A stretch of 64,000 nt of DNA from contig OZ231126.1 in the NCBI GenBank assembly GCA_965153355.1, positions 28,768,001 to 28,832,000 of the forward strand, written 5' to 3'. A program made the position numbers and the translations under genes. Below the pieces are notes generated by a model, which saw nothing but the letters and a program-made list of their open reading frames with translations, had not been told where the DNA came from and made no database searches. The stretch is from Flaccisagitta enflata. Taxonomy: Eukaryota. This document shows positions 1 through 62,093 of this stretch, in pieces (position 1 is the first letter of the stretch; each line of letters starts with the position of its first letter).

Positions 1-665
1 TATAAAGATATGAAGATATAATAGTATGAAAATATAAAGATTCAGAGATAAGGAGAAAAATATAAATTGATTCCTCTCTTCCCTCCCCCCACGCCTCCCC
101 ACCCCTCCCCCCGCCTCATCCTCATGAAGAGACATGAAGGGACTTGGAGAGACATGGAGAGATATGGGGAGACATGTAGAGATATGGAGAGACATGTAGA
201 GACATGACTCATGAGGAAACATAAGGAGACATAAGAGACATATAGGGACATGAAGAGACATACGAGACATAAGAGACCTAAGAGATACAAGAGACATAAG
301 AGATATAAGGGATATAAGAGATAAAAGAGATATAAGAGATATAAGAGATATAGGAGATACGAGATATAAGAGATATAAGAGACATAAGAGCCATAAGAGA
401 TATAAGAGACATATGAGACATATAGGAGACATTAGAGACATATAGGAGACATATAGGAGACAAAAGAGACATAAGAGACCTAGGAGACAACGAGACATGA
501 GATACATAAGAGACCTAAGATACATAAGAGAAATAAGAGACATACGAGATATAAGAGACATACGAGATATAAGAGACGTATAGGAGACATACAGGACATA
601 CGAGACATATAGGAGACAAAAGAGACGAAAGAGATGAAAGAGACATAAGAAATATAAAAGACAAC
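1..665. repeat. Degenerate ~9-bp satellite (AGAGAYATA-like units)
   Basis: Repeated gagatataa/gagacataa/gagacatat units, densest at 130-660; explains the spurious minus-strand ORFs. Confidence 0.8.
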
Positions 666-1557
666 AAAAAACATGAAGACTGAAGAGAAAACCTTAAAAA
701 TCGCGTTTTAGAATTTTCGCGTTCCACTCAGACAGACAGACATTCCTACCAAGGGACAGACCCTCTTATAGAGATGCGAGGACGCATCTTAAAATATCGA
801 GAAAAAAACCTCTGTACAAATTCTTTTACTGATCAATCAGTCAGTTCTATGTCACTCCAATACATGTGACTAAGGCGAGCAAAGGCAAAATAACTCTCGG
901 CTGCTTTTGAAGTTGATTGAATTATTAATTGAACAGAGGAAATCAAGGGAAGTGAAAATGATTTATGATTCATTCTTGAGCTTCATAAATTTAATAGAAA
1001 CTGCCCGTTACCCACTCAGTCATTCTTGCCTTCTATCCCTCTACACTATTCCTCACTAACACCCTTTACCTCTCTACCCTGTCATGTCTTTTTCTCTCTC
1101 CCCCTAACTTTTTTCCTCCTCTTGGAATCTGTCTCTTGGTACCTCCTTATCAACCTCCGACCGTCCGTCAACCTTTATGTCTCCCATTCAATCTACTACT
1201 TCTTTTTTTCATCCGTCTGTCAGTCTGTCTGCCTAGCAGTTTGTCCGCCGATCTGTCGCTTTTAGTCAGTCGCTGTCTTTCTGAATGTCTCTCTCGCTCT
1301 GTTTTTCTTCCCTACTTTTTTTTCTCTCTCTCTCCGTCTTGCCCTCTTTTTTTTCTTTCCTCCTTTCTCTCTTTCATTCTTTCTCTCTTTCCTTCTTTCT
1401 CTCCTTCCTTCTTTCTCTCCTACCTTCTTTCTCTCTCTCATTCATTCCTTCTTTCTCTCTTCTCTCCTTTTTCTCTTTTCTTCTTTTTCCCTTACCACTT
1501 TCTCTTTCCTTCACTTTCTCTTTCCTTCTCTTTCTCTTTCCTTCTTTGTCTCCATCC

Positions 1558-2110
1558 TTTTTGGGCAGCGGCCCCAAAGGGCCGATGTCCTGTAGAACAC
1601 AGGGGGGAATTTCCATATGTCCGTCCTTCCGTCCGTCCTTCCGTCCCCCCCCGGCAATCAAGGCCTCAAATTTGCCCTCCCAGCCCTCAAATTTGCCCTC
1701 CCAGCCCTCGATTTAGCCCTCCAGGCCTAAAATCAGCTTTCCAGGCTTCAAATCAGCCCCCCCCCCGCCTCAAATCTGATCTCCAGACCTCAAATCTGCC
1801 TTCCAGACCTTCAATTAGCCCTCCAAGCGTAAAATCAGCCTTCCATGGCTTAAATTTTCCCTCAAAACCCTAAATCGGCTCTCCAAGCCTTAATTCTGCC
1901 CTACAGCCTTCAAATATGCCTTCAGCGGCCTAAATCAGTCATCTAAGGCATGAAATATGCCGTCTCAGGACGTATGGAAATTCCCCCTGTGTTCTACAGG
2001 ACATCGGCCCTTTGGGGCCGCTGCCCTGCTTTCACTCCACTTCTTCACTGGATCACTCCTAGCAGGGCATCGGGTACCGCTGACCATGTGCGATCCTTGG
2101 ATGACTAGTT
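1558..2110 (+). mobile_element. Non-autonomous repeat family B (Helentron/HINE-like, asymmetric subterminal inverted repeat)
   Basis: GGGCAGCGGCCCCAAAGGGCCGATGTCCTGTAGAACACAGGGG near 1563 and its reverse complement near 1985-2027; internal ~21-bp tandem units; conserved 3' tail (GGGCATCGGGTACCGCTGACCATGT). Related copies at ~8771, ~44066, 49618, 52003 and 57930. Confidence 0.7.
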
Positions 2111-2200
2111 CTCTCCTTCCTCCTTTCTTTTCTTCCATCAGTTCTCTTTCCCTCTTTCCTCTTTTCTCTCTTTTCTTCTTTCTCTCCTTCCGTCTCTCTC

Positions 2201-2236
<36 letters not shown>

Positions 2237-2239
2237 CCT

Positions 2240-2332
<93 letters not shown>

Positions 2333-2375
2333 TTCTCTCTAACGTCAACTCTCCATTTTCCATTTTTGATTGCAG

Positions 2376-2457
2376 TGAACTCGTCACTCAATTTCCTGAT
2401 TTATTGCTTCTTGAGTCCTCACTTCCTCCGAGTTTTCCGTGCAACATTTTGTCGAAG
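2376..2457 (+). CDS. Class A GPCR (probable peptide receptor), exon encoding TM7 and helix 8
   Basis: tgcag|exon|gtaatt; translates xNSSLNFLIYCFLSPHFLRVFRATFCR. NFxxY is the NPxxY variant seen in FMRFamide/myosuppressin/sex-peptide-receptor-type GPCRs. Phase-2 end joins the exon at 3262 (R-CC). Confidence 0.8.
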
Positions 2458-2765
2458 GTAATTGGTGGCAGAGTGATTGAAGTCAATGACATAATTGTCA
2501 AAGGTAATTGGTGGCTGACAGGCTGAGTGATTGAAGTCAATGGCATGTTTTGTCGAAGGTTACTGGTTTGATACGAGGTTGGTGTGAGTGATTGAAGGCA
2601 ATGACATGTTTTGTCAAAGGTTATTGGTTAGATAAAAGTTTGGTGTGATTGAACTTTGAAGTCAATTACATGTTTTGTCGAAGGTTATTGGTTTGATCAA
2701 AGGTTGGTGTAAATGATCGAAGTCAATGACATGTTTTGTCAAAGGTAATTATTTTGATCAAAAGA
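2444..2765 (+). repeat. Degenerate ~45-65-bp tandem repeat, ~6 units, containing the exon end and 5' splice site
   Basis: Units of acatNttttgtcRaag|gtWaYt...gaagtcaat. Confidence 0.8.
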
Positions 2766-3184
<419 letters not shown>

Positions 3185-3261
3185 CTCAAGCCACATTGAC
3201 TGACGCCACATGCGTAACGTACGAATTTCGAAAGCTTAACAGGCCATTTCATGCCATTTAG

Positions 3262-3392
3262 GTGTTGTCCCGGCGATGAGATGAGCGAACGGGACGCAAT
3301 AATGAACGAGCTCAATCATACGACAGCGTCAAGCCTCTCTAGAATGCCATCGGAAGTCGGAGACAGAGACAGGACCGCTCAACGCGCCAAAG
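3262..3392 (+). CDS. Class A GPCR C-tail exon (CCPGDEMSERDAIMNELNH...TAQRAK)
   Basis: catttag|exon|gtgagt; only the phase-2 frame is open, matching the previous exon; CC after helix 8 is a likely palmitoylation site. Confidence 0.75.
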
Positions 3393-3735
3393 GTGAGTGC
3401 GCAGATGAAGTGAGTGAGAATCATGACGGAACGAAATCATACAACAGTGTCATGCCTCTCTAGCATGCCATCGGAAGTCGGAGACAGAGACAGGGCCGCT
3501 CATCGCGCCAAAGGTAAGTGCGCAGATGAAGTGAGTGAGAATCATGACGGCGCTCAATTAATCAATAATTATACAACAGTGTCATGCCTCTCTAGCATGT
3601 CATCGGAAGTCGGAGACGGAGACACAGACAGAGCCACTCAATGCGCCAGAGGTGAGTGAGCAGATCAATTGAGTAGGCATCATGAAAAAGCTCATCCATA
3701 CAAAAGCGTCAAGCCTCTCTAGAATGCCATCAGAA
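3302..3735 (+). repeat. ~121-bp degenerate tandem repeat (3.5 units) spanning the exon end and donor site
   Basis: cctctctagMatgYcatcggaagtcggagac...cgccaRag|gtRagt occurs three times, plus a partial fourth unit. Confidence 0.85.
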
Positions 3736-3913
3736 CATTACCCACATAGTATTACCCTAAAGCAGAAGCCTGAATCGCCAAAACGAACCCCCTTGAATGA
3801 GCCTAATTATACCGCCGCGTCGAGTTATGGCATCTGGAATGCCACCAAAGGTTACAACTCTCAGGATTGTGTAAATATGATGATTACTTCTCATTTACCT
3901 AAAGCTAGACCAA

Positions 3914-4628
3914 TCAGGTGTGTCAAAAAATAAAAAACATCTTTGATCAGATCATCCTCATCAGAGAGTGTAAACAAACAAATTTTAAGACTTTTACCAT
4001 TTTTATTTTTTCAAATTTCAGTCATCTTCCGTTTTTTTAGGGCAGGAAAAGATTGTCCAAAATATATATACTTCCAGAGTCTTTACCTAGTTTTGTTGAA
4101 AATAAGACCCAAAACTTCAATAAAGATTATCAAATTCTATTTCTTTTTATAATTTTGGTGGTAAAGAAACAAGGCCGGATACACGGCTACCCCAGTCGCG
4201 TGCGGGTGGGCAGGGGCCATAATTGAGGTCACCAGATTGTTTGGGCAGGAGCGGTAAGGCCAAAAACCGCAAAAACCCAAAAAAAGTAAAGTGTGACGGA
4301 CCGACGGACCGACGGACCGACGGACGGACCGACAAAGCGGGGTGTAGAGTCGCGTAGCACGCGACTAACAACTTTTACCTAATCCCAACTAGAAATCGAA
4401 GCAAGATATTTAAATGGGTACTATTTCTACATTTATAAACAATAATTCTGATACAAAATCGATAACACAGCAATATACAAATTAACGCTAAAAAGGGGTT
4501 TTGAAAAAAACGGAAGATGACTGAAATTTAAGAAAATAAAAATGGTAAAAGTCTTAAAATTTGTTTGTTTACACACCCTGATGAGGATGATCTGATCAAA
4601 GATACTTTTTATTTTTTGACACACCCGA
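3914..4628. mobile_element. MITE with long TIRs and 9-bp TSD (Mutator-like), containing a HINE insertion
   Basis: TIR TCAGGTGTGTCAAAAAATAAAAA...TTTTTATTTTTTGACACACCCGA, >100 bp imperfect; TSD CTAGACCAA at 3905-3913 and 4629-4637. Confidence 0.85.
4167..4368 (-). mobile_element. DINE-1/HINE-like element, family A
   Basis: Read on the minus strand: TTAGTCGCGTGCTACGCGACT 5' hairpin, (GTCC/GTCG)n, 3' subTIR GCACGCGACT, stem-loop GCCGTGTATCCGGC, then CTTGTT. Confidence 0.8.
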
Positions 4629-5089
4629 CTAGACCAATACTAGTAGCTATCCCAACCAACACCCACCAAATTGGAAGTGGAATGACCGCTTCCACAACCC
4701 AAAAGGCACACACATACAAATCCACATGACCAATCATAACACCCACGCACACAAAAGTACACATAAACATGAACATACCAACACACAAAATGCAAGAAAC
4801 AAACACGCATACGAAGACAAATGAACACACAGACAAAAAAACACACAGACAAAAAAACAAACGAGCAAACAAACACACACACACAGCCAGCCAGCACACA
4901 CAACCACTAAATTCTTCAATCTTGAAGCTCGACAAGAAATTTAAATTCAGAAATAAACCTGTTTCCCGAAATAAAGGCGTGTGAAGCTGAAGGTTGTCTT
5001 TGAATCAAAACAAGAAAATCGCCGTTATAGGAAAAGCAGTATAACGACAAAGACAGCAAAAAGTCGAAAACCTTCGGCACATGGCTTTC

Positions 5090-5130
5090 TATAAAAATAC
5101 AACGATCATCATTTAGTGACGCACTCAGCT
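5090..5130 (+). promoter_or_regulatory. Possible core promoter of the nested Ig-like gene
   Basis: TATAAAA at 5090-5096 with Inr-like TTAGT/TCAGC 23-35 nt downstream and the ATG at 5141; motif evidence only. Confidence 0.3.
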
Positions 5131-5820
5131 AGAAAAGAGAATGCAGATTTTCATTGCTGCGCCATTTTTCCTTTTTTGGACATTGTTCTTGAAAGTCCAT
5201 GCCAACGAGAATTTCACCTTCTGGTTTACCAGTGGGCAGTTGTTCATCGAAGGTGATGTTGTTGAGCTGTACTGTCCGCGACTCGCCCTTAAAGACACCG
5301 CTGACTACATTTACTTCCCGGGACTTTGGTTTGAATCGGATCGACGTTGGTACGTGCGTTCGACGAAAACTCTGATTTTTGCACCAAACATAAAAAACCC
5401 GAACGACAGTGACGGACTGCGTTGTTCTGACGCTCGCTTCAACTGCTCCGCTTTGGACTGCGACGAACAAATTCAAAGGGAAAATTGTGCGAATATGTTA
5501 TCAAGAGTTGTGAGCGTGGAATCGGTCGACAATTCTATCGAGATTCCGAATGAAGTGAGAGCAAGAAAAAAACACAAACCGGCGATTCCACTTTCGTCAC
5601 CATTGTCATTTGTCAAGTTCACAATCCGCGCTGCCTGGGAGTTCGGGGATGGCATATTTCATTGCTCCAATGGCTCGCTTTTGTCACCTGCAGCACTCGC
5701 TTTGGATCAAGACGCAGACAATTCAACGTCAGACTTGATTTTCCGGATGCCCAAGACGAAATTGAATTATGTGGTCGGCGAAATCCATCAACTTTGGAGT
5801 CGTTGGATTCACGTGGTCAT

Positions 5821-6192
5821 CCGGGGTGCCGATTCTGTATGGCTGCCGCGTAGCAAGGATTTGCCAGCGAAGGCTGCCGCACTTTCTTTGCATCTAAAAT
5901 CTTTCTGCTTTCTTACTAAATTAGCCCTCTGACGCTTAATTGATAATCCTGTTACTTACCTACTATTGTAAAAACAGGTTTAACTTCACATCATTAAGGT
6001 TATCAGAATATCTTGCTCTTCATCCTAGAATACTTCTAGACTCCTCTCTACTTCTAGACTTCTCTCTTCCTTTCCTTCATCCTCATCTTGCAATTTTGAT
6101 CAGTTTTCCCCACCAAGTGCCACAGCTGCCGCACCTGGCGGCTTGCCTGCCGCGTAGCATTGCTACCCTGCTACCCTGAATCGGCACCCCGG
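5821..6192. mobile_element. hAT-like MITE inserted in coding sequence
   Basis: Perfect 15-bp TIR CCGGGGTGCCGATTC / GAATCGGCACCCCGG; perfect 8-bp TSD GTGGTCAT at 5813-5820 and 6193-6200; homologous copy at 42432-42761. Confidence 0.9.
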
Positions 6193-6503
6193 GTGGTCAT
6201 TACTGACTCACTGGAGTTGTACGTTAATGACGGCAGGATAGGAGAACGATTGGATATCAATTGTCGCGCCAACATGCGGTGGAGAGGGCATATAATCAAA
6301 TGGCTTAGGTCTGATGATTATGGCGGGGGTTGGGGCGGCTGGTGGACCGGTTCTGACTTCCAAGCGACCTGGGGCCCTCTTGCAAGCTGGAAGCATGATT
6401 CATCGGAGGTTTCATGTACCCTCGATTACAGCATAGCATATAGCTACAGCAACCCCCCAAGATTTAGAAGCTATTCCGATGAACCCGTCATGAAGGTGAT
6501 ATA

Positions 6504-6970
6504 CACGCACTTGACTGAGTAACAACCTTCTTTATAACAACGTTGAGGCTCAAAATGTCAAAAAAATAAGAACATTTGTAGCAACATCGTCAGCCTCAGA
6601 AAATCAAAAATACAACAACATTTCAGCCTCATGTCCAACCAATAATAACTTTTCTCTTAGATTCGCTATAATTTCCGTTGCATTCAATTGTAACATGCGG
6701 CGGTTTTGAAGAAGGGGTGGCTTTTTCTTCTGTATTTCAGTTATAACAACATTTTGTCCCTTTATTTCATTCCTACCCTAGATCCCTTTCATTCCAGAGA
6801 AAGCAGCGAAAGGAATGGAAGTACAGACATCCTAATCAATCGTTACATTAGAAGATTGATAAGAAAAAAATAACAACAGTTTAGCAACGGTTTGAGCCTC
6901 ATATCGTCATTCAAATAACAACATTGAGCCTCAGAAAAAAATAACCCGTTGTTACTCAGTCAAGTGCGTG
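6504..6970. mobile_element. Tc1/mariner-like MITE inserted in coding sequence
   Basis: Perfect 23-bp TIR CACGCACTTGACTGAGTAACAAC; TA TSD at 6502-6503 and 6971-6972. Confidence 0.9.
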
Positions 6971-8485
6971 TACCCTTACCTGCTCAACGTTACCGCAGCC
7001 GAACCGTCCTCGACCGAAAAGACAACGGACCAATTGACAACGTCTATGCAAGCCAAGACAACATTGGACGATGGTGCATCATTGGACCCGACGACCATTA
7101 ATGAACCAACAACTCTGTCATCAATCGCCAGCTCTGGATGGAGCGAGAAAAACGCAAGGCCATCCGCTGAGACAACAAACTGTGACAGCTGTGGATATAG
7201 AGAGAACCTTAGACCTGACGTCAACAAAACACGTGCAAGGCACTACCACTGTGAGGCCATTGATTGAAACAACTGCTGAGGGTAACACAGTAATGGACAG
7301 TAGTGCAACAATCGGCATATCAACAGCTAACGATCCATCAACACTATCATCAATCACAGATGGAAGCGAAGAATTTTCAGTATCAGCAAAGAACGAGCAG
7401 GGCATAAGAACCACGAAAAAAATGGTTGAAACCACTGCGAAAAGTGACTTGGCAGCCGGAACTATCTCCCAAACTCTAATCATAGTCATCAGCGCCATGG
7501 CTGTTCTTATCTTCATCATTTTTGTCGTTCTCCTCTTCGTAAGCGTCTTTCTGTCGAAAATCATGAATCAACAAAAAAGTAACGTAGAAAACCATAATCA
7601 TATCAGCAACATGAACATCAGCGACGACGGAGTCATTGGAGATAATTGGGACGGGCAGAGCGCTCACACGTACATGAGCTTTCGCAGCAGCGGGAGTTCT
7701 CACATTTACGAAGATATCGACGAGAACGGCTCATCAGCCGAGTATCACCGGTCTACCCAAATTGACATGTCACCTGATTTTCATCACTCAAACACTGACA
7801 ATCCGCCGGTTGAAGACGCAAGCGTCCAACCATCTGTTTGATTGTCATTTAAGTAAACTTACTCATCCCTAAATCAAAACTTGAATGATATATTATACAT
7901 AAAATTTTTTAGCCAAGTTGGAAAACTAATAATTACGTCTTCTAGTACAGCACGGTTGACCAACACTAAATTTTTTTACAATTCGCACAATTTGACGATT
8001 ACATCTGGGAGTAATTGTATTGGTGTATTAATTCATGTGCTAAAATCGTTTTGTTGGGAACGGGGATGTTGAGGCTATGAAAAAGTTACCTATTCATTAT
8101 GCGTTGGTGACGAATTGCTTCCATTTCAATGGAAAAATGATTTATTTTCCTAACAAGTGATTACATATGTATGTATGTATGTATGTATGTGCATTCAATC
8201 GCGGGAACCTAGATCCAAGCATAAAGGATTTCTATCTAGAAACTGATGACGAAGAAAACGGAATGTCTCGACGAAATGGATTGTAAGGTAAGCTTTGCTT
8301 GGCTCATTTAATGAACCAACAGGTCCCAAAATAGACATATCTCGTCCACTAAAAATTGTCTATGCATATCGTGTATTCTGATGGCGTTAATTGTCAGCGG
8401 GACCACTAAAGTACGATCAACCGAGCGGGGCCTCTGAAGCAGAATGTCATGTCATTAACTATCCCCTTTAAAACGAATCTCTCAG

Positions 8486-8641
8486 GTCGGAACAGCCTCC
8501 GGAGTTTGCGGTCGTCGACGTCGACCGGCGGAACGATTCAAATGAAAGACCTTCAAGAGAAGCTGGAAGAAGCGCTGAGAAGCTCCGACTGCGAAAGGGA
8601 AGAAGCCAAAGACCAAGTCAACGCTAGCTTGGCCACTTATG
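8486..8641 (+). CDS. Class A GPCR C-tail exon (GRNSLRSLRSSTSTGG...LATY)
   Basis: ctctcag|exon|gtatga; phase 1/1, in frame with the exons at 3262-3392 and 9198-9379. Confidence 0.65.
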
Positions 8642-9197
8642 GTATGATGATATAGGGATGGTACCAGGCCCGGGGAGTCGGGGGAGTCGAGGGAAGGTGC
8701 ATGCAACGGCTCAAGTGAAAGGGGAAATTAACCAGAGTGACACTTATGACAAAATTTCTGAAGTCGCCATTTTAGGCAGCGGCCCTAAAGGGGACAAAGT
8801 CCTTTAGGACATGAGGACTTCCGCGTGTTTGGCCGTTTTGTGCACCCTCCCTCCACCATGAGCTCTTTCACTTTCAGACCCCAGATCAGGCCTACCTACA
8901 ATTTATCCTTTTAGGCCTCAACTTCTCTGGCTTCATCAGACCCCTTCCGACTCAAACCCCCACTCAAGCATCGAGTCAGCCCTAATGACTTTCAAATACC
9001 TCATATCGCTATCAACCCTTTAAGCTCTAAAATTAGCGATCTCTAACTCCAAATTATCTTATATACGCCTTACCCAGATGTCTCGCTACACTAAGTCAGA
9101 GCGCTTCCTGTGTTTAACAACTCATATCACCCTGCGAATGGAATTGCGTCAGTTGCCGAATAATTGACCCGTCACACTTTTTTCCTCCTTCCGTTAG

Positions 9198-9379
9198 CTT
9201 TACCAGAGGAAGACGAGGATTGCGACAGCGGGCATAGCAGCAGCGGTCACGGCAGTCTGGAGACAACGACTGCAGCAGCAATCGCCAGCGCCATCGCTGG
9301 TAAAACCACAACCAACCCGGAAACCACCAAAGAGTCGCCGAAATACGAGGAGAGACCTAAGATTGGTTCCATGGTCTAA
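9198..9379 (+). CDS. Class A GPCR terminal coding exon, ending ...RPKIGSMV* (class I PDZ-binding motif)
   Basis: Polypyrimidine tract + ttag acceptor; phase 1 in frame; stop TAA at 9377-9379; AATAAA at 10099 and 10135. Confidence 0.65.
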
Positions 9380-12367
9380 TTATGGAGAAGAGACTGGAAC
9401 AACTAAATTTCCGACTCATTCCCAAGAACAGTAAAAACTTGTGCTCTTCTAGAAAAAAAGAGATCCTTGTCTGTTATGGAAATTTGCTCGATGATCAGCC
9501 CCCGACACCCATTAAATAGGCCATTCCCCTTACGCCATTTAAGACTTCACGCTCCACCACGGCCTGAGCCACCCCCTTACCTCCCGAATGTAGTTATTTT
9601 CTCTACCCCGATCACGCAATCAAACTGGAATTTCGCCGCGGCCCCATGAGTGTCAGCTGCACATCATGAATAGAAAACAGCGAGGCTATCTCCGCTGCCT
9701 CCGGTAACAGCACTATCATGACTTTCTGGCCTCAAAACAGTTTCCCATATCAGACAAGTCGGTTACTACAGTATTCTTCACGTCATGCCGATCGCGATCT
9801 AACTTAACATCTGCTCACGGCCATACAACTTATTTCTCTGAGATTCGGTTTCAACTTAACAAAAAACGATTTCATAATAACATTGTTGCTACTAATTGTG
9901 AACTTAAACCGCCAATTCTTTTATTATTATTATTTGTTCCATTCATTATAATATATATATACACATTCAAAAAATTCCACACAATCACTTCGGTCAAAGA
10001 ACAACACAATGTCACTAAGGTTTTCATTTTTGTTTGTACCAAACAGCGAAATTGGGAGCAACGGAACTTTGAAGGGTGAGAGATACGGCATAAGCGCAAA
10101 TAAAACCGGAAAATATTTAAAAATTAAGAAAACCAATAAATCAATATTTACGCTAAAGCGGCAGGTGCTCAGAAGATTGCGTACATTTTTTTGATACGTT
10201 GGTAATTAAGCATATTTTTAATACCAAATGTACATACGACGTGTCGAGTTATTCTTTGTATGGACAGATAACTCCATTTTTTTCTTTTTATTTTTTTCGT
10301 TGGGTGAGAACGAGATAAATCCATTAACATTCGTAAGTTAACGCGGAAAAGCTACACAGAGTCCACGCTCCCAAGAGAGAGAAACTATATAGATAGTCGA
10401 TTAGCACTATAAAATGGTCTATCACGATTAGAGAAGAAGATATGAAATCTCAGTTAAGCCGTGTTATAACCGGGTAATTTCGTCAATTCAAAGAAAAAAG
10501 TTTGCGAAATAGGCGCAAACATGCGTGACTACAGAATGTTTGCCACTACCCAATTTCACATTATGAATACTTAGCCACACCAAAAGCGAAAACAGCATAC
10601 ACCTGCTTCAAACTCTTGCGTACGCCAGTGCAGTGACGGACGCCCATTTCTTACAGGATATCACTCTACGAAAAGTGACGATCTCACATCTTCAATAAAA
10701 TCGTGGATGCAAAGCGGCGGACAAAAACTACAATGACGCAATTATTTGACCAGACAACTAAGCAAGACATCGAACGGACGAACGAACAAACAAATAACCT
10801 GGGCAAATTTTCATTCATTTATTTCATGCATAAATTCGATGCCTCGTACGAATGAACATCCAATCATCTGTCTACATATGCGCACTAATAGAACAGGAAA
10901 GAAAAGAGCGCCGTTATCAGGCATGACAAACCCCGAAGCTCAATAGCATACAAAATTTGGAGAGAGTGTTTTACGACATGCGGTGACCATGTTTTGGTAT
11001 TACCATTTGTTAAGAAAGAGCTATACATTTTGGTCAATGTAAACTAAGTCATATACAGAAATGAAACAAGGAGATATTACTAATTCAAAAGAGTAAAACA
11101 AATTATCGATCTGGAAAAGAAGAAATCTCCGAGACGAACGTTTTGTTAGCTAGATACCAACCGGTCAAGAGATACAGACACACATTTAACACAAAAGCCT
11201 CATTCATGAAATACTGCTACTTCTGGCGCATGTTCCTCAGTTTCTCGTACAAACTACGACTAAGGAGAAAATAGCTAACTAATGGACACAAATTGGAGGG
11301 GGAATGATGGGGGGGGGAGGGAAAATAATGGGGTGGGAACTGAAACCGCGCCGCGATCAACTGATACATTGTCCGATCACTTGAAATGGCTAAGAAGGAT
11401 AAATAGAGATAAGCCAGCGTAACGATCGTGAAAACGGTACTAGTAAAAGGATCTCTCATCAGAACGTTATAGACCTGTAGACGCGCTGTTTGACGCAATA
11501 AAGAGGGAAAAAGCTACGTAACATCACTTCGATGGGAATGCTGAAATTACTTGGCGGTAGTCTTTGTTGTTTGCGGCTTTAATGCTATTTCAAATGGAAC
11601 GCAAGGAAGGGCGAGACAGACAGGAGAAAGGAAGGAAGAAAGGGAAGGGAAAGAAATAAGAAAGGTAGTTAGTTAGGAGGAAGGGAAGGGGGAGGGAAGT
11701 GTTGGGGGTAGCTTAGCTCCTACCACCCTCTGTCCCACTGTGTATATCGGAAGAGAACCGAGTTTTTAGTCCAATAATCCGATAATTGTCAACCTTGGCG
11801 GAAAAAAAGAAGCAGGGAAAGCGAACTACACAAAGGCGCGTCTAGGGCAACTTTCCCCCATTTTTCTCAGCAAACACACAAGCAGACGCTTTTTGCTTTC
11901 AATGACCATTCACGTTAGGAAAAGGGAAGGGACAGAGAGAAAGGATAAGTCGTCAATTCCCAGTGTAAACTATCCATCAGTCAGTCCGTCCGTCCGTCTG
12001 TCTAACTGACCGTTTGTTCATTGGGCTGTAAGTCCTCTTTTCAGTCCGTCCATCCCTCAGTCCAATCCACGATCATCGTCCGTTTGCCCCATCTGTCTGC
12101 ACTGACTTAAAACACATGAAGCGTATGTTAGAGAGGAGACGCGTTGGCAAGCACCACAAAAACATGAAAATAAAGTAGCAAAAGCAGGCCAGAGGGGGAG
12201 AGGAAGAGATGGTGAATCTCTTTAGGATGGGGGGGGGAGAGATTGTTGTTTAGCCATTGTTTAGTGAATTATTGAATCAATTGAGGATCCATATTCCCAT
12301 CTAGCAAGGGAACTGACACGGTTGGGGGTGGGGGCAAGGGCAGCGAGGTTGTTTAGGGGCTCATTTG

Positions 12368-60997
<48,630 letters not shown>

Positions 60998-62093
60998 CTG
61001 GACGAACAAAAGAGAGAGGAGAAAAAGAAAGATGTGATGTTTGATGTATGTTGCATTTGTCAGTAATATGTAACAATAGACATCAAAATCCGCCGCAAAA
61101 ATATTTAAAATGAAAAGGTAAAAGTTCCCTTGATAATCGGAACTCATTGTGTAATGCTTGACAAACGATAAACCATCAACCCCGGAAAGCCAACATTTAT
61201 CCATTTTTAATTCAGTTGATGTACAGCTTGTGAAAAAGTAATGGTATTGAATTCAAACCCTCTTCATGCGCCTCGGATTTTAGTTATGTCCACGAAGGGA
61301 ACAGGTCAATATCTACCGCGTGCAAATGGGTGGGTGCAACAATCCCTTGAAAACTGATTACGCCACAAGTCTCCCAGACAGGTGAACCGATGGATGGATG
61401 GATGGAAGTATGGATGGATGGATGGATGGATGGATGGATGGATGGATGGATGGATGGATGGATGTGGCTTGGAGAAAATAAACTCAATATCCAAGGTAGA
61501 AGCACCTCTCATTTACATTTTCCAAGGAAATCGAGCTTACGGGATCAAGAAGGCTGGAGTTAAAACTTACAAAAACTCGAACATGAAAAGATATTGATTT
61601 AAAATTGAATCTCTTTGCTCCTCTTTCCTCATCCCGTGTCATTTCGCTTTTGTTGACAGGCAAAAATTTCGGCAATGTAAAAACAAGGCCAAGTTTGGCC
61701 AATACGTGCGCCTCGCAGATTATGAACATATGAATGAATGAATGAATGAATGAATGAATGAATGAATGAATGAATGACTGACTGAATGAGTTCGGGAAGG
61801 ACAAAATGTATGGATGAAGAAAGGCGTGAAATCAGTCAATTTGCGTGACCAACAAGACCGACCGACCGATCGACCAACGGATCCGGACACGACCTCTAAT
61901 ACATGTGCCAGATGTGCCGAGGACGCACATTAAAACGGGAAGGAAAGACGTTTGCTAATGCCCAAATATTCGAAAATATTCCACGCTCATTCAAGGAAGG
62001 TTTACATATGAAAATATGTTAAAAGCCGATGGTAAAAAAAAACCTTTCCTTCCTTCCTGATTTCTATCCACATTATTCAAATTATTTTGATTC

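Follow-up and report, generated by a model that had tools for sequence, protein, structure and literature searches.

The 64,000-nt stretch analysed here, hereafter the window, belongs to Flaccisagitta enflata (contig OZ231126.1, positions 28,768,001 to 28,832,000 of the forward strand; all coordinates below are counted within the window). Its region 5141-7841 on the + strand is best explained as a single-exon, lineage-restricted type I receptor gene of the immunoglobulin superfamily (IgSF) of a marine animal, which the window carries as a null allele while an unbroken form segregates; we lean, if only somewhat, toward this joint explanation. An earlier note on the same DNA had described the encoded protein as a signal peptide followed by Cys/Trp-patterned domains, a Ser/Thr-rich stalk, a transmembrane segment, and a tail with tyrosines, and this layout is borne out. 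As for the parts of the explanation, a V-type immunoglobulin (Ig) fold of domain 1 is moderately supported, and we infer an Ig fold of domain 2, signalling, and any immune or allorecognition role of the receptor.

Stop-to-stop open reading frames (ORFs) of the + strand break the gene region into three pieces. The translated parts are 226 aa from the ATG (5141-5818), 105 aa (6196-6510), 68 aa (6974-7177), and 220 aa followed by the stop codon at 7839-7841 (7179-7841). After setting aside two miniature inverted-repeat transposable elements (MITEs) and one frame break, 5141-7841 (+) reads as one frame. If each MITE is removed together with one copy of its target duplication (380 and 469 nt, respectively), and one further base is taken out, 1851 nt are left, which equals 616 codons and a stop. 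The claim that three fragments merge into a frame of about 616 aa, once two MITEs and one nucleotide near 7178 are excised, therefore holds to the codon, and the repair is backed independently by empty MITE sites and by an in-frame version of the break region in contigs from a second DNA sample. In the window allele the break is placed at 7178-7242 (+), with the frames switching between 7038 and 7267; the two internal repeats of the stalk are too diverged for placing it, and Tandem Repeats Finder reports no tandem repeat in the stalk region.

Both insertions have the marks of their respective MITE classes. MITE1 (5821-6192, strand unassigned, 372 nt) is a non-coding hAT-type element with perfect 15-nt terminal inverted repeats (TIRs), the 8-bp target duplication GTGGTCAT at 5813-5820 and 6193-6200, no coding capacity, further copies, and an empty site; a target duplication of 8 bp is a hallmark of hAT elements. 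The window has one more copy at 42436-42763, diverged and with only the 5' end in common; an ORF on the minus strand about 900 nt away (43663-43938) resembles the C-terminal dimerisation domain of hAT elements (PF05699, E 1.5e-7) and may be a decayed autonomous parent of MITE1. MITE2 (6504-6970, strand unassigned, 467 nt) is of the Stowaway-like, Tc1/mariner-derived type, having perfect inverted ends of 23 nt, a TA target duplication at 6502-6503 and 6971-6972, high copy number, and an empty site. Splicing of the two elements as introns is rejected, as neither has GT..AG ends and the joints are seen in DNA contigs.

Four public runs were aligned to 4900-8200, namely X1 (DNA with the same organism label), X3 (marine metagenome), X7 (metatranscriptome), and X23 (polyA RNA). 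Contigs of X1 join 5812 to 6193, skipping 380 nt (372 + 8) at a depth of 93.7, and 6501 to 6971, skipping 469 nt (467 + 2) at a depth of 120.5. These are the exact empty sites of MITE1 and MITE2, and their joints are covered about as deeply as the unique flanks (about 90-125). The depths on the elements themselves, about 290,000 for MITE2 and 22,000-150,000 for the ends of MITE1 versus about 100 on the flanks, are so far above the flanking values that both are high-copy repeats; at the MITE sites the depths are summed, and filled sites cannot be told apart from them. In the break region, one X1 contig has 13 nt in place of the 65 nt of 7178-7242, and the net change of -52 nt brings both frames into register, whereas another matches the window over 7119-7309 with no differences, so the sample holds both forms. 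Elsewhere in the coding parts, X1 shows an in-frame 15-nt deletion at 7609 and no further listed frame-breaking indel; a 2-nt insertion lies beyond the stop. With the exact empty sites and an in-frame form of the break present in X1, the copy in the window is a null allele rather than a fixed pseudogene. The two MITEs and the small frame-shifting indel would truncate the window copy after domain 1, and the same locus would be free of all three lesions in another DNA sample of the organism.

The start codon and a hydrophobic leader of residues 1-21 occupy 5141-5203 (+), with a putative signal-peptide cleavage after VHA; in the predicted model the leader region forms a helix at residues 9-19. 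Domain 1 follows at 5204-5820 (+) and ends at residue 226. It contains six cysteines (45, 95, 102, 107, 116, and 175) and five N-glycosylation sequons, and is assigned, by predicted fold and canonical residues, to a V-type Ig-like domain with insertions. The AlphaFold2 model, built from a family alignment of eight sequences, has a predicted local distance difference test score (pLDDT) of 56.7 and a predicted template modelling score (pTM) of 0.60, and shows a Greek-key beta-sandwich of two sheets, superposable on V domains of solved structure. All 50 of the 50 best structural matches are V domains, spanning residues 27-226, with the immune-type receptor V domain 3bdb_A at the top of rows tied within 1 Z unit. 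Foldseek against PDB reports nothing at E <= 0.001 for this model; its best rows are all V-like Ig, namely human cytomegalovirus (HCMV) UL141, NITR10, NITR11, CD8, and antibody VH.

The conserved pin and corner residues of V-set domains, given in the excerpted text of PMC9546547 as Gly16, Cys23, Trp41, Arg75, Tyr102, and Cys104, have the counterparts G38, C45, W63, R122, F173, and C175 in domain 1, where Phe replaces Tyr102. The spacings Gly-Cys 7, Cys-Trp 18, and Phe-x-Cys 2 are canonical; Asp98 lacks an exact counterpart, D170 being one position off. R122 in strand D, the pattern before C175 in strand F, and a hydrophobic residue of strand E were assigned by eye. The Cys-Cys distance from strand B to strand F is 130 versus the usual 81, and the roughly 49 extra residues fall between C' and D, where the four cysteines 95/102/107/116 and a helix at 109-120 are located, and between D and E. 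Thus, the earlier suggestion of an Ig domain with a Cys-Cys spacing of about 130 residues and four extra cysteines is supported, the fold being V-like in the model. It is quite unlikely that domain 1 is another kind of beta-sandwich, its Ig likeness being an artefact of a shallow, low-confidence model, as all 50 listed rows belong to one fold class over residues 27-226, the Gly/Cys/Trp/Phe-x-Cys spacings agree exactly with the canonical ones, and an independent language-model search also gives Ig families (0.89-0.91, a weak lead).

Domain 2 (6201-6501, +) is a probable C2/I-like Ig domain according to its Cys pair, its language-model likeness, and its conservation in a relative (P0007). The two cysteines, C23 and C74 in the numbering of the translated piece P0002, are 51 residues apart, with a Trp at +13. 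Among the 10 best-scoring named clusters of the ESM Atlas for this domain, 9 are Ig families (0.91-0.92), and a PDB profile search with it returned nothing relevant; its Ig nature is only a lead. The stalk (6971-7460, +) is rich in Ser, Thr, and Pro (38% over 162 residues), and has one N-glycosylation sequon and two diverged internal repeats. It is followed by the transmembrane segment (7461-7553, +; Kyte-Doolittle 19-residue maximum 3.45) and a cytoplasmic tail of 95 residues plus stop (7554-7841, +).

The tail contains three tyrosines on the + strand, within YMSF (7671-7682), within YEDI (7707-7718), and at 7743-7745, with 8 residues between YMSF and YEDI. A search with the tail found two matches among 21 candidates, P0012, which is 92% identical and spans the transmembrane segment and the tail, and P0013. 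YMSF and YEDI are unchanged in both, and the third Tyr is His in P0012; since P0012 and P0013 are close alleles, this conservation says little. YEDI presumably resembles the preferred motif of Src-family SH2 domains. In the proposed mechanism, the membrane-distal V-type domain with its disulfide-rich insertion would be the ligand-binding part, carried on the probably C2/I-like second domain and a glycosylated, mucin-like stalk. Upon ligand engagement a Src-type kinase might phosphorylate the tyrosines of YMSF-x8-YEDI, and the phosphorylated tail might then recruit proteins with SH2 domains.

The family to which the receptor belongs is small. Among 1.84 billion protein representatives, phmmer reports five relatives at E <= 0.001 (P0005-P0009), all of them unnamed fragments from marine ENA metagenome contigs of 0.5-1.2 kb. 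P0005 is 96% identical over residues 1-194, P0006 and P0007 are 40% and 50% identical, respectively, P0008 is an N-terminal part with its own leader, and P0009 is the fifth relative. In P0005 and P0008 the hydrophobic leader stands directly before the domain, as in the receptor. P0007 runs in one frame from domain 1 via domain 2 into a Ser/Thr-rich stretch, and because it reads straight across the MITE1 site, it confirms the join made there. Six cysteines and the motifs FHCSNGSLL and HQLWSR are conserved across the family.

Further searches did not enlarge this set. No paralogue was found by tblastn elsewhere in the window, a word-index search with the family profile gave four proteins among 4155 candidates, none of them new, and none of the stretches matched by pattern in JGI metagenomes (157) or in IMG/VR viral contigs (11) is a relative. 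A literature search for FHCSNGSLL and HQLWSR found no paper; no wider search for a prior description was made. These genes are a new lineage-restricted family of IgSF receptors, in keeping with the lineage-specific family that had been proposed. Whether of DNA or cDNA origin, the contigs of the relatives do not show that the relatives are intronless.

The restricted distribution also bears on a different function. The gene might encode a type I adhesion or junction molecule of V-C2 organisation (CTX/JAM/CAR-like) rather than an immune receptor, its tyrosines serving endocytosis or scaffold binding, the nearest known molecules of this kind being CAR (D1 in 3j6o and 2j12) and JAML (3mj6). However, adhesion molecules of this type are usually conserved across animals and intron-rich, the CTX/JAM/CAR-type genes being multi-exon, whereas the receptor gene is a single exon with a long mucin-like stalk, is restricted to five clusters in the proteins searched, and tolerates null alleles. 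The best structural match being an immune-type receptor V domain also speaks against adhesion, though the tie among the rows noted above applies here. We regard an adhesion role as distinctly unlikely.

The coding sequence of the receptor is a single exon, as the note had stated. A putative TATA box, TATAAAAA, was read directly at 5090-5097 (+), 44 nt upstream of the ATG, and would mark the core promoter. No A-run was found by eye in 7842-8200 after the stop. Because of this TATA box and the missing A-run, a processed retrocopy is argued against; the marks of a retroposed copy are absent, with no poly(A) remnant and with the gene's own TATA box in place, and lack of introns alone does not show retroposition. 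The possible retroposition raised earlier thus finds no trace here. The same is true for the proposed nesting in an intron of a G protein-coupled receptor gene: none of the 82 ORFs of at least 45 aa on either strand of 1-16500, the gene itself left aside, and none of the 77 + strand ORFs of 24-44 aa matches any seven-transmembrane family, a result that does not extend to exons of fewer than 24 aa or beyond the window.

Acquisition from, or carriage by, a virus or mobile element would explain both the single exon and the likeness to viral Ig glycoproteins. An intronless coding sequence, repeat-rich surroundings, and the top Foldseek row, the HCMV UL141 glycoprotein (PDB 4i9x, 4jm0; E 0.027, probability 0.72), are compatible with such an origin, and the alignment with UL141 is, at about 150 columns, longer than that of a plain V domain. 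The match is weak, however (TM-scores of 0.26-0.31, 10% identity), and UL141 is a viral protein, while no relative of the receptor family was found in IMG/VR viral contigs. Moreover, neither a viral nor a transposase ORF lies beside the gene, and no terminal repeats or target duplications surround it as a whole (computed for 5700-7100, flanks read by eye). Such an origin is therefore very improbable.

Alleles in other sources add further lesions. A 259-nt contig of the marine metagenome X3 joins 5024 to 5165 (depth 5.18, side 120; 1 and 2 other letters on its sides), so that 140 nt (5025-5164, +) are missing, which takes out the TATA box, the ATG, and 8 codons. Read by eye, the window has no in-frame ATG between the upstream stop at 5001 and the deletion junction. 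Another X3 contig, of low depth (2.3), carries 5- and 6-nt insertions near 5625-5653, which may be sequencing-level error at that depth. In P0013, the last 81 residues match the receptor tail at 89%, and the first 60 show 100% identity to a stretch that precedes the gene by about 1.7 kb (window 3251-3430). As the window sequence offers no GT..AG at its junction, P0013 is read as a deletion allele of about 4 kb that brings 3251-3430 to the tail, with putative ends at about 3430-3560 and about 7598, or as an assembly chimera; a spliced transcript of an upstream gene was set aside as the first choice for the same reason. The stretch matched by P0013 overlaps a 121-nt tandem repeat (3314-3735, 3.3 copies), each unit of which has consensus-like splice-donor strings AAGGTGAGT.

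The several distinct disrupting alleles, namely that of the window with its MITEs and frame break, the 140-nt deletion, and P0013, fit the fast turnover suggested in the earlier note. P0005 and P0012 are open versions of the gene's two ends from other sources, which supports an unbroken form. As part of the joint explanation toward which we lean, the promoter and start deletion in wild DNA would be a further lesion, and the locus would segregate as functional and non-functional haplotypes.

Several observations count against this explanation. The intact allele is seen in X1 only as pieces, never as a single contig, and the X1 contigs could in principle represent a very recent paralogue instead of an allele. 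According to a crude count, the 17 coding differences listed between X1 and the window comprise 10 replacement and 7 silent ones, a ratio that fits weak constraint and diversification equally; 37 further single-letter differences of X1 lie outside these 17. In Pfam, the families V-set, I-set, ig, Ig_2, and Ig_3 match none of the eight family members at E <= 10, nothing meaningful is found in any translated piece of the receptor, and sequence and profile searches of PDB are without a match. The AlphaFold2 model of domain 2 is unusable (pLDDT 35). Of the two Ig domains claimed earlier, then, the first stands as V-like by model and residue spacings, whereas the second is no more firmly placed than above.

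The tail motif is likewise not canonical, though ITAM-like; the note had linked a YxxI/F tail to SH2-recruiting receptors. The consensus of the immunoreceptor tyrosine-based inhibition motif (ITIM) is [S/I/V/L]xYxx[I/V/L]; YEDI has His at -2, and YMSF and YHRS also deviate from the pattern. In the immunoreceptor tyrosine-based activation motif (ITAM), for which the excerpted text of PMC9546547 gives Yxx[I/L]-x(6-9)-Yxx[L/I], the spacing and the second half agree with YMSF-x8-YEDI, but the first half ends in Phe. The tyrosine motifs thus fit neither consensus.

Transcription adds to the points on this side. With about 6 in 100 of the polyA RNA run X23 read, no reads fall on exons and all 4 aligned reads belong to MITE2; the metatranscriptome X7 covers MITE2 only. 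Because the genotype and tissue of the RNA individual are not known, missing reads do not demonstrate silence.

These data are also what a dispensable gene decaying species-wide would produce, that is, a unitary pseudogene in the making whose apparently open alleles have gone out of expression and use. Three lesions on one haplotype, the 140-nt promoter and start deletion on another, the probable deletion of about 4 kb in P0013, the lack of RNA reads on exons, and the high ratio of replacement to silent differences all agree with decay. Open versions, however, are present in several independent sources (X1 contigs, P0005, and P0012), relatives at 38-50% identity share the cysteine framework and the motifs, and the RNA evidence comes from a small part of one run of an individual of unstated genotype. 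Species-wide decay is thus unlikely, while keeping an appreciable share of the probability.

As for the surroundings of the receptor gene, a HEAT-repeat gene, CLASP by eye, lies on the minus strand with its last coding exon near 12368-12480; the two genes converge, and the receptor gene does not lie inside the other. No paired partner gene is evident next to the receptor gene, and Rfam has no matches in the window. A sub-threshold match to mitochondrial ribosomal protein S32 at 9670-9804 (+; PF10210, E 0.0028, 18.6 bits versus a cut-off of 29.2) might represent one exon of a small gene on the downstream side of the receptor gene.

The HEAT-repeat gene spans about 12.4-61 kb. Exons assigned to it by eye on the minus strand (16685-17002, 19422-19808, 27505-27813, 28239-28622, and 60887-61252) have no Pfam match singly, and the one at 28239-28622 is 91% identical to a 755-residue unnamed Logan protein with HEAT-type Pfam domains. 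Within 24316-26815 (+), on the opposite strand, an F-box (PF12937/PF00646, E about 1e-9) precedes an unbroken ORF of 660 residues for which Pfam gives no confident match. The regions 48701-50034 and 50939-52417 contain identical ORFs at a distance of about 2385 nt (48786-49145 equals 51171-51530, and 49732-50034 equals 52115-52417), which points to a tandem duplication of about 2.4 kb that is recent. Long (CT)n, (GT)n, and related microsatellites are found, for example, at 2100-2400, 3000-3183, 12500-13600, 54100-54500, and 56400-57100, and a short element recurs in the window whose translation has runs like RPSVRPSV.

Among known systems, the closest analogues are Alr, NITR, and FcoR/Fester. 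Domain 1 finds its best structural matches in teleost NITR10 and NITR11 (PDB 2qhl, 3b5t, 3bdb, and 2qte), which take rank 1 in the comparison with the 50 V-domain rows and ranks 5, 8, and 12 in Foldseek. NITRs are V-domain receptors of multigene, fast-evolving families and carry tyrosine motifs. In comparison with the receptor, they have 8-14% identity, a normal Cys-Cys spacing, and no Cys-rich insertion in their V domains, and are found in vertebrates only.

The Alr proteins of Hydractinia share more traits with the receptor, as far as the excerpted text of PMC9546547 describes them. Both are type I IgSF proteins whose N-terminal V-set domain (in Alr, mostly) escapes Pfam and is recognised by AlphaFold and structural alignment, Phe often replaces the Tyr of the tyrosine corner in Alr too, and an additional helix occurs between strands C'' and D in many of the Alr models. 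Tyrosine motifs are likewise present in Alr tails, and that family mixes genes and pseudogenes (PMC9546547). Fester and FcoR of Botryllus, according to the part of PMC12582321 that covers them, are IgSF receptors with ITIM, hemITAM, and other tyrosine motifs, whose polymorphic haplotypes differ in gene content. They vary in the copy number of gene pairs (PMC12582321), whereas the receptor locus varies by disruption of a single gene through MITEs and deletions.

The most far-reaching version of these likenesses is a self/non-self or pathogen-recognition system peculiar to the marine lineage, in which the V-type domain with its disulfide-knotted insertion would be the variable binding face, functional and null haplotypes (MITE-disrupted, promoter-deleted, or with the large deletion) would be kept under balancing selection, and signalling would run through a non-canonical ITAM (YxxF-x8-YxxI); as a whole this is improbable at present.

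A V-type domain that is invisible to Pfam and keeps the Cys-Trp-Cys pin, with a four-cysteine insertion, would be another Ig receptor missed by profiles outside model animals. At the same time, the locus offers a clean natural case in which MITE insertions create a null allele of a receptor while empty sites still segregate. Should polymorphic recognition turn out to be the role of the family, it would join Alr, Fester/FcoR, NITR, and KIR as a new and independently evolved case; otherwise, the gene would be an ordinary lineage-specific member of the IgSF undergoing loss.

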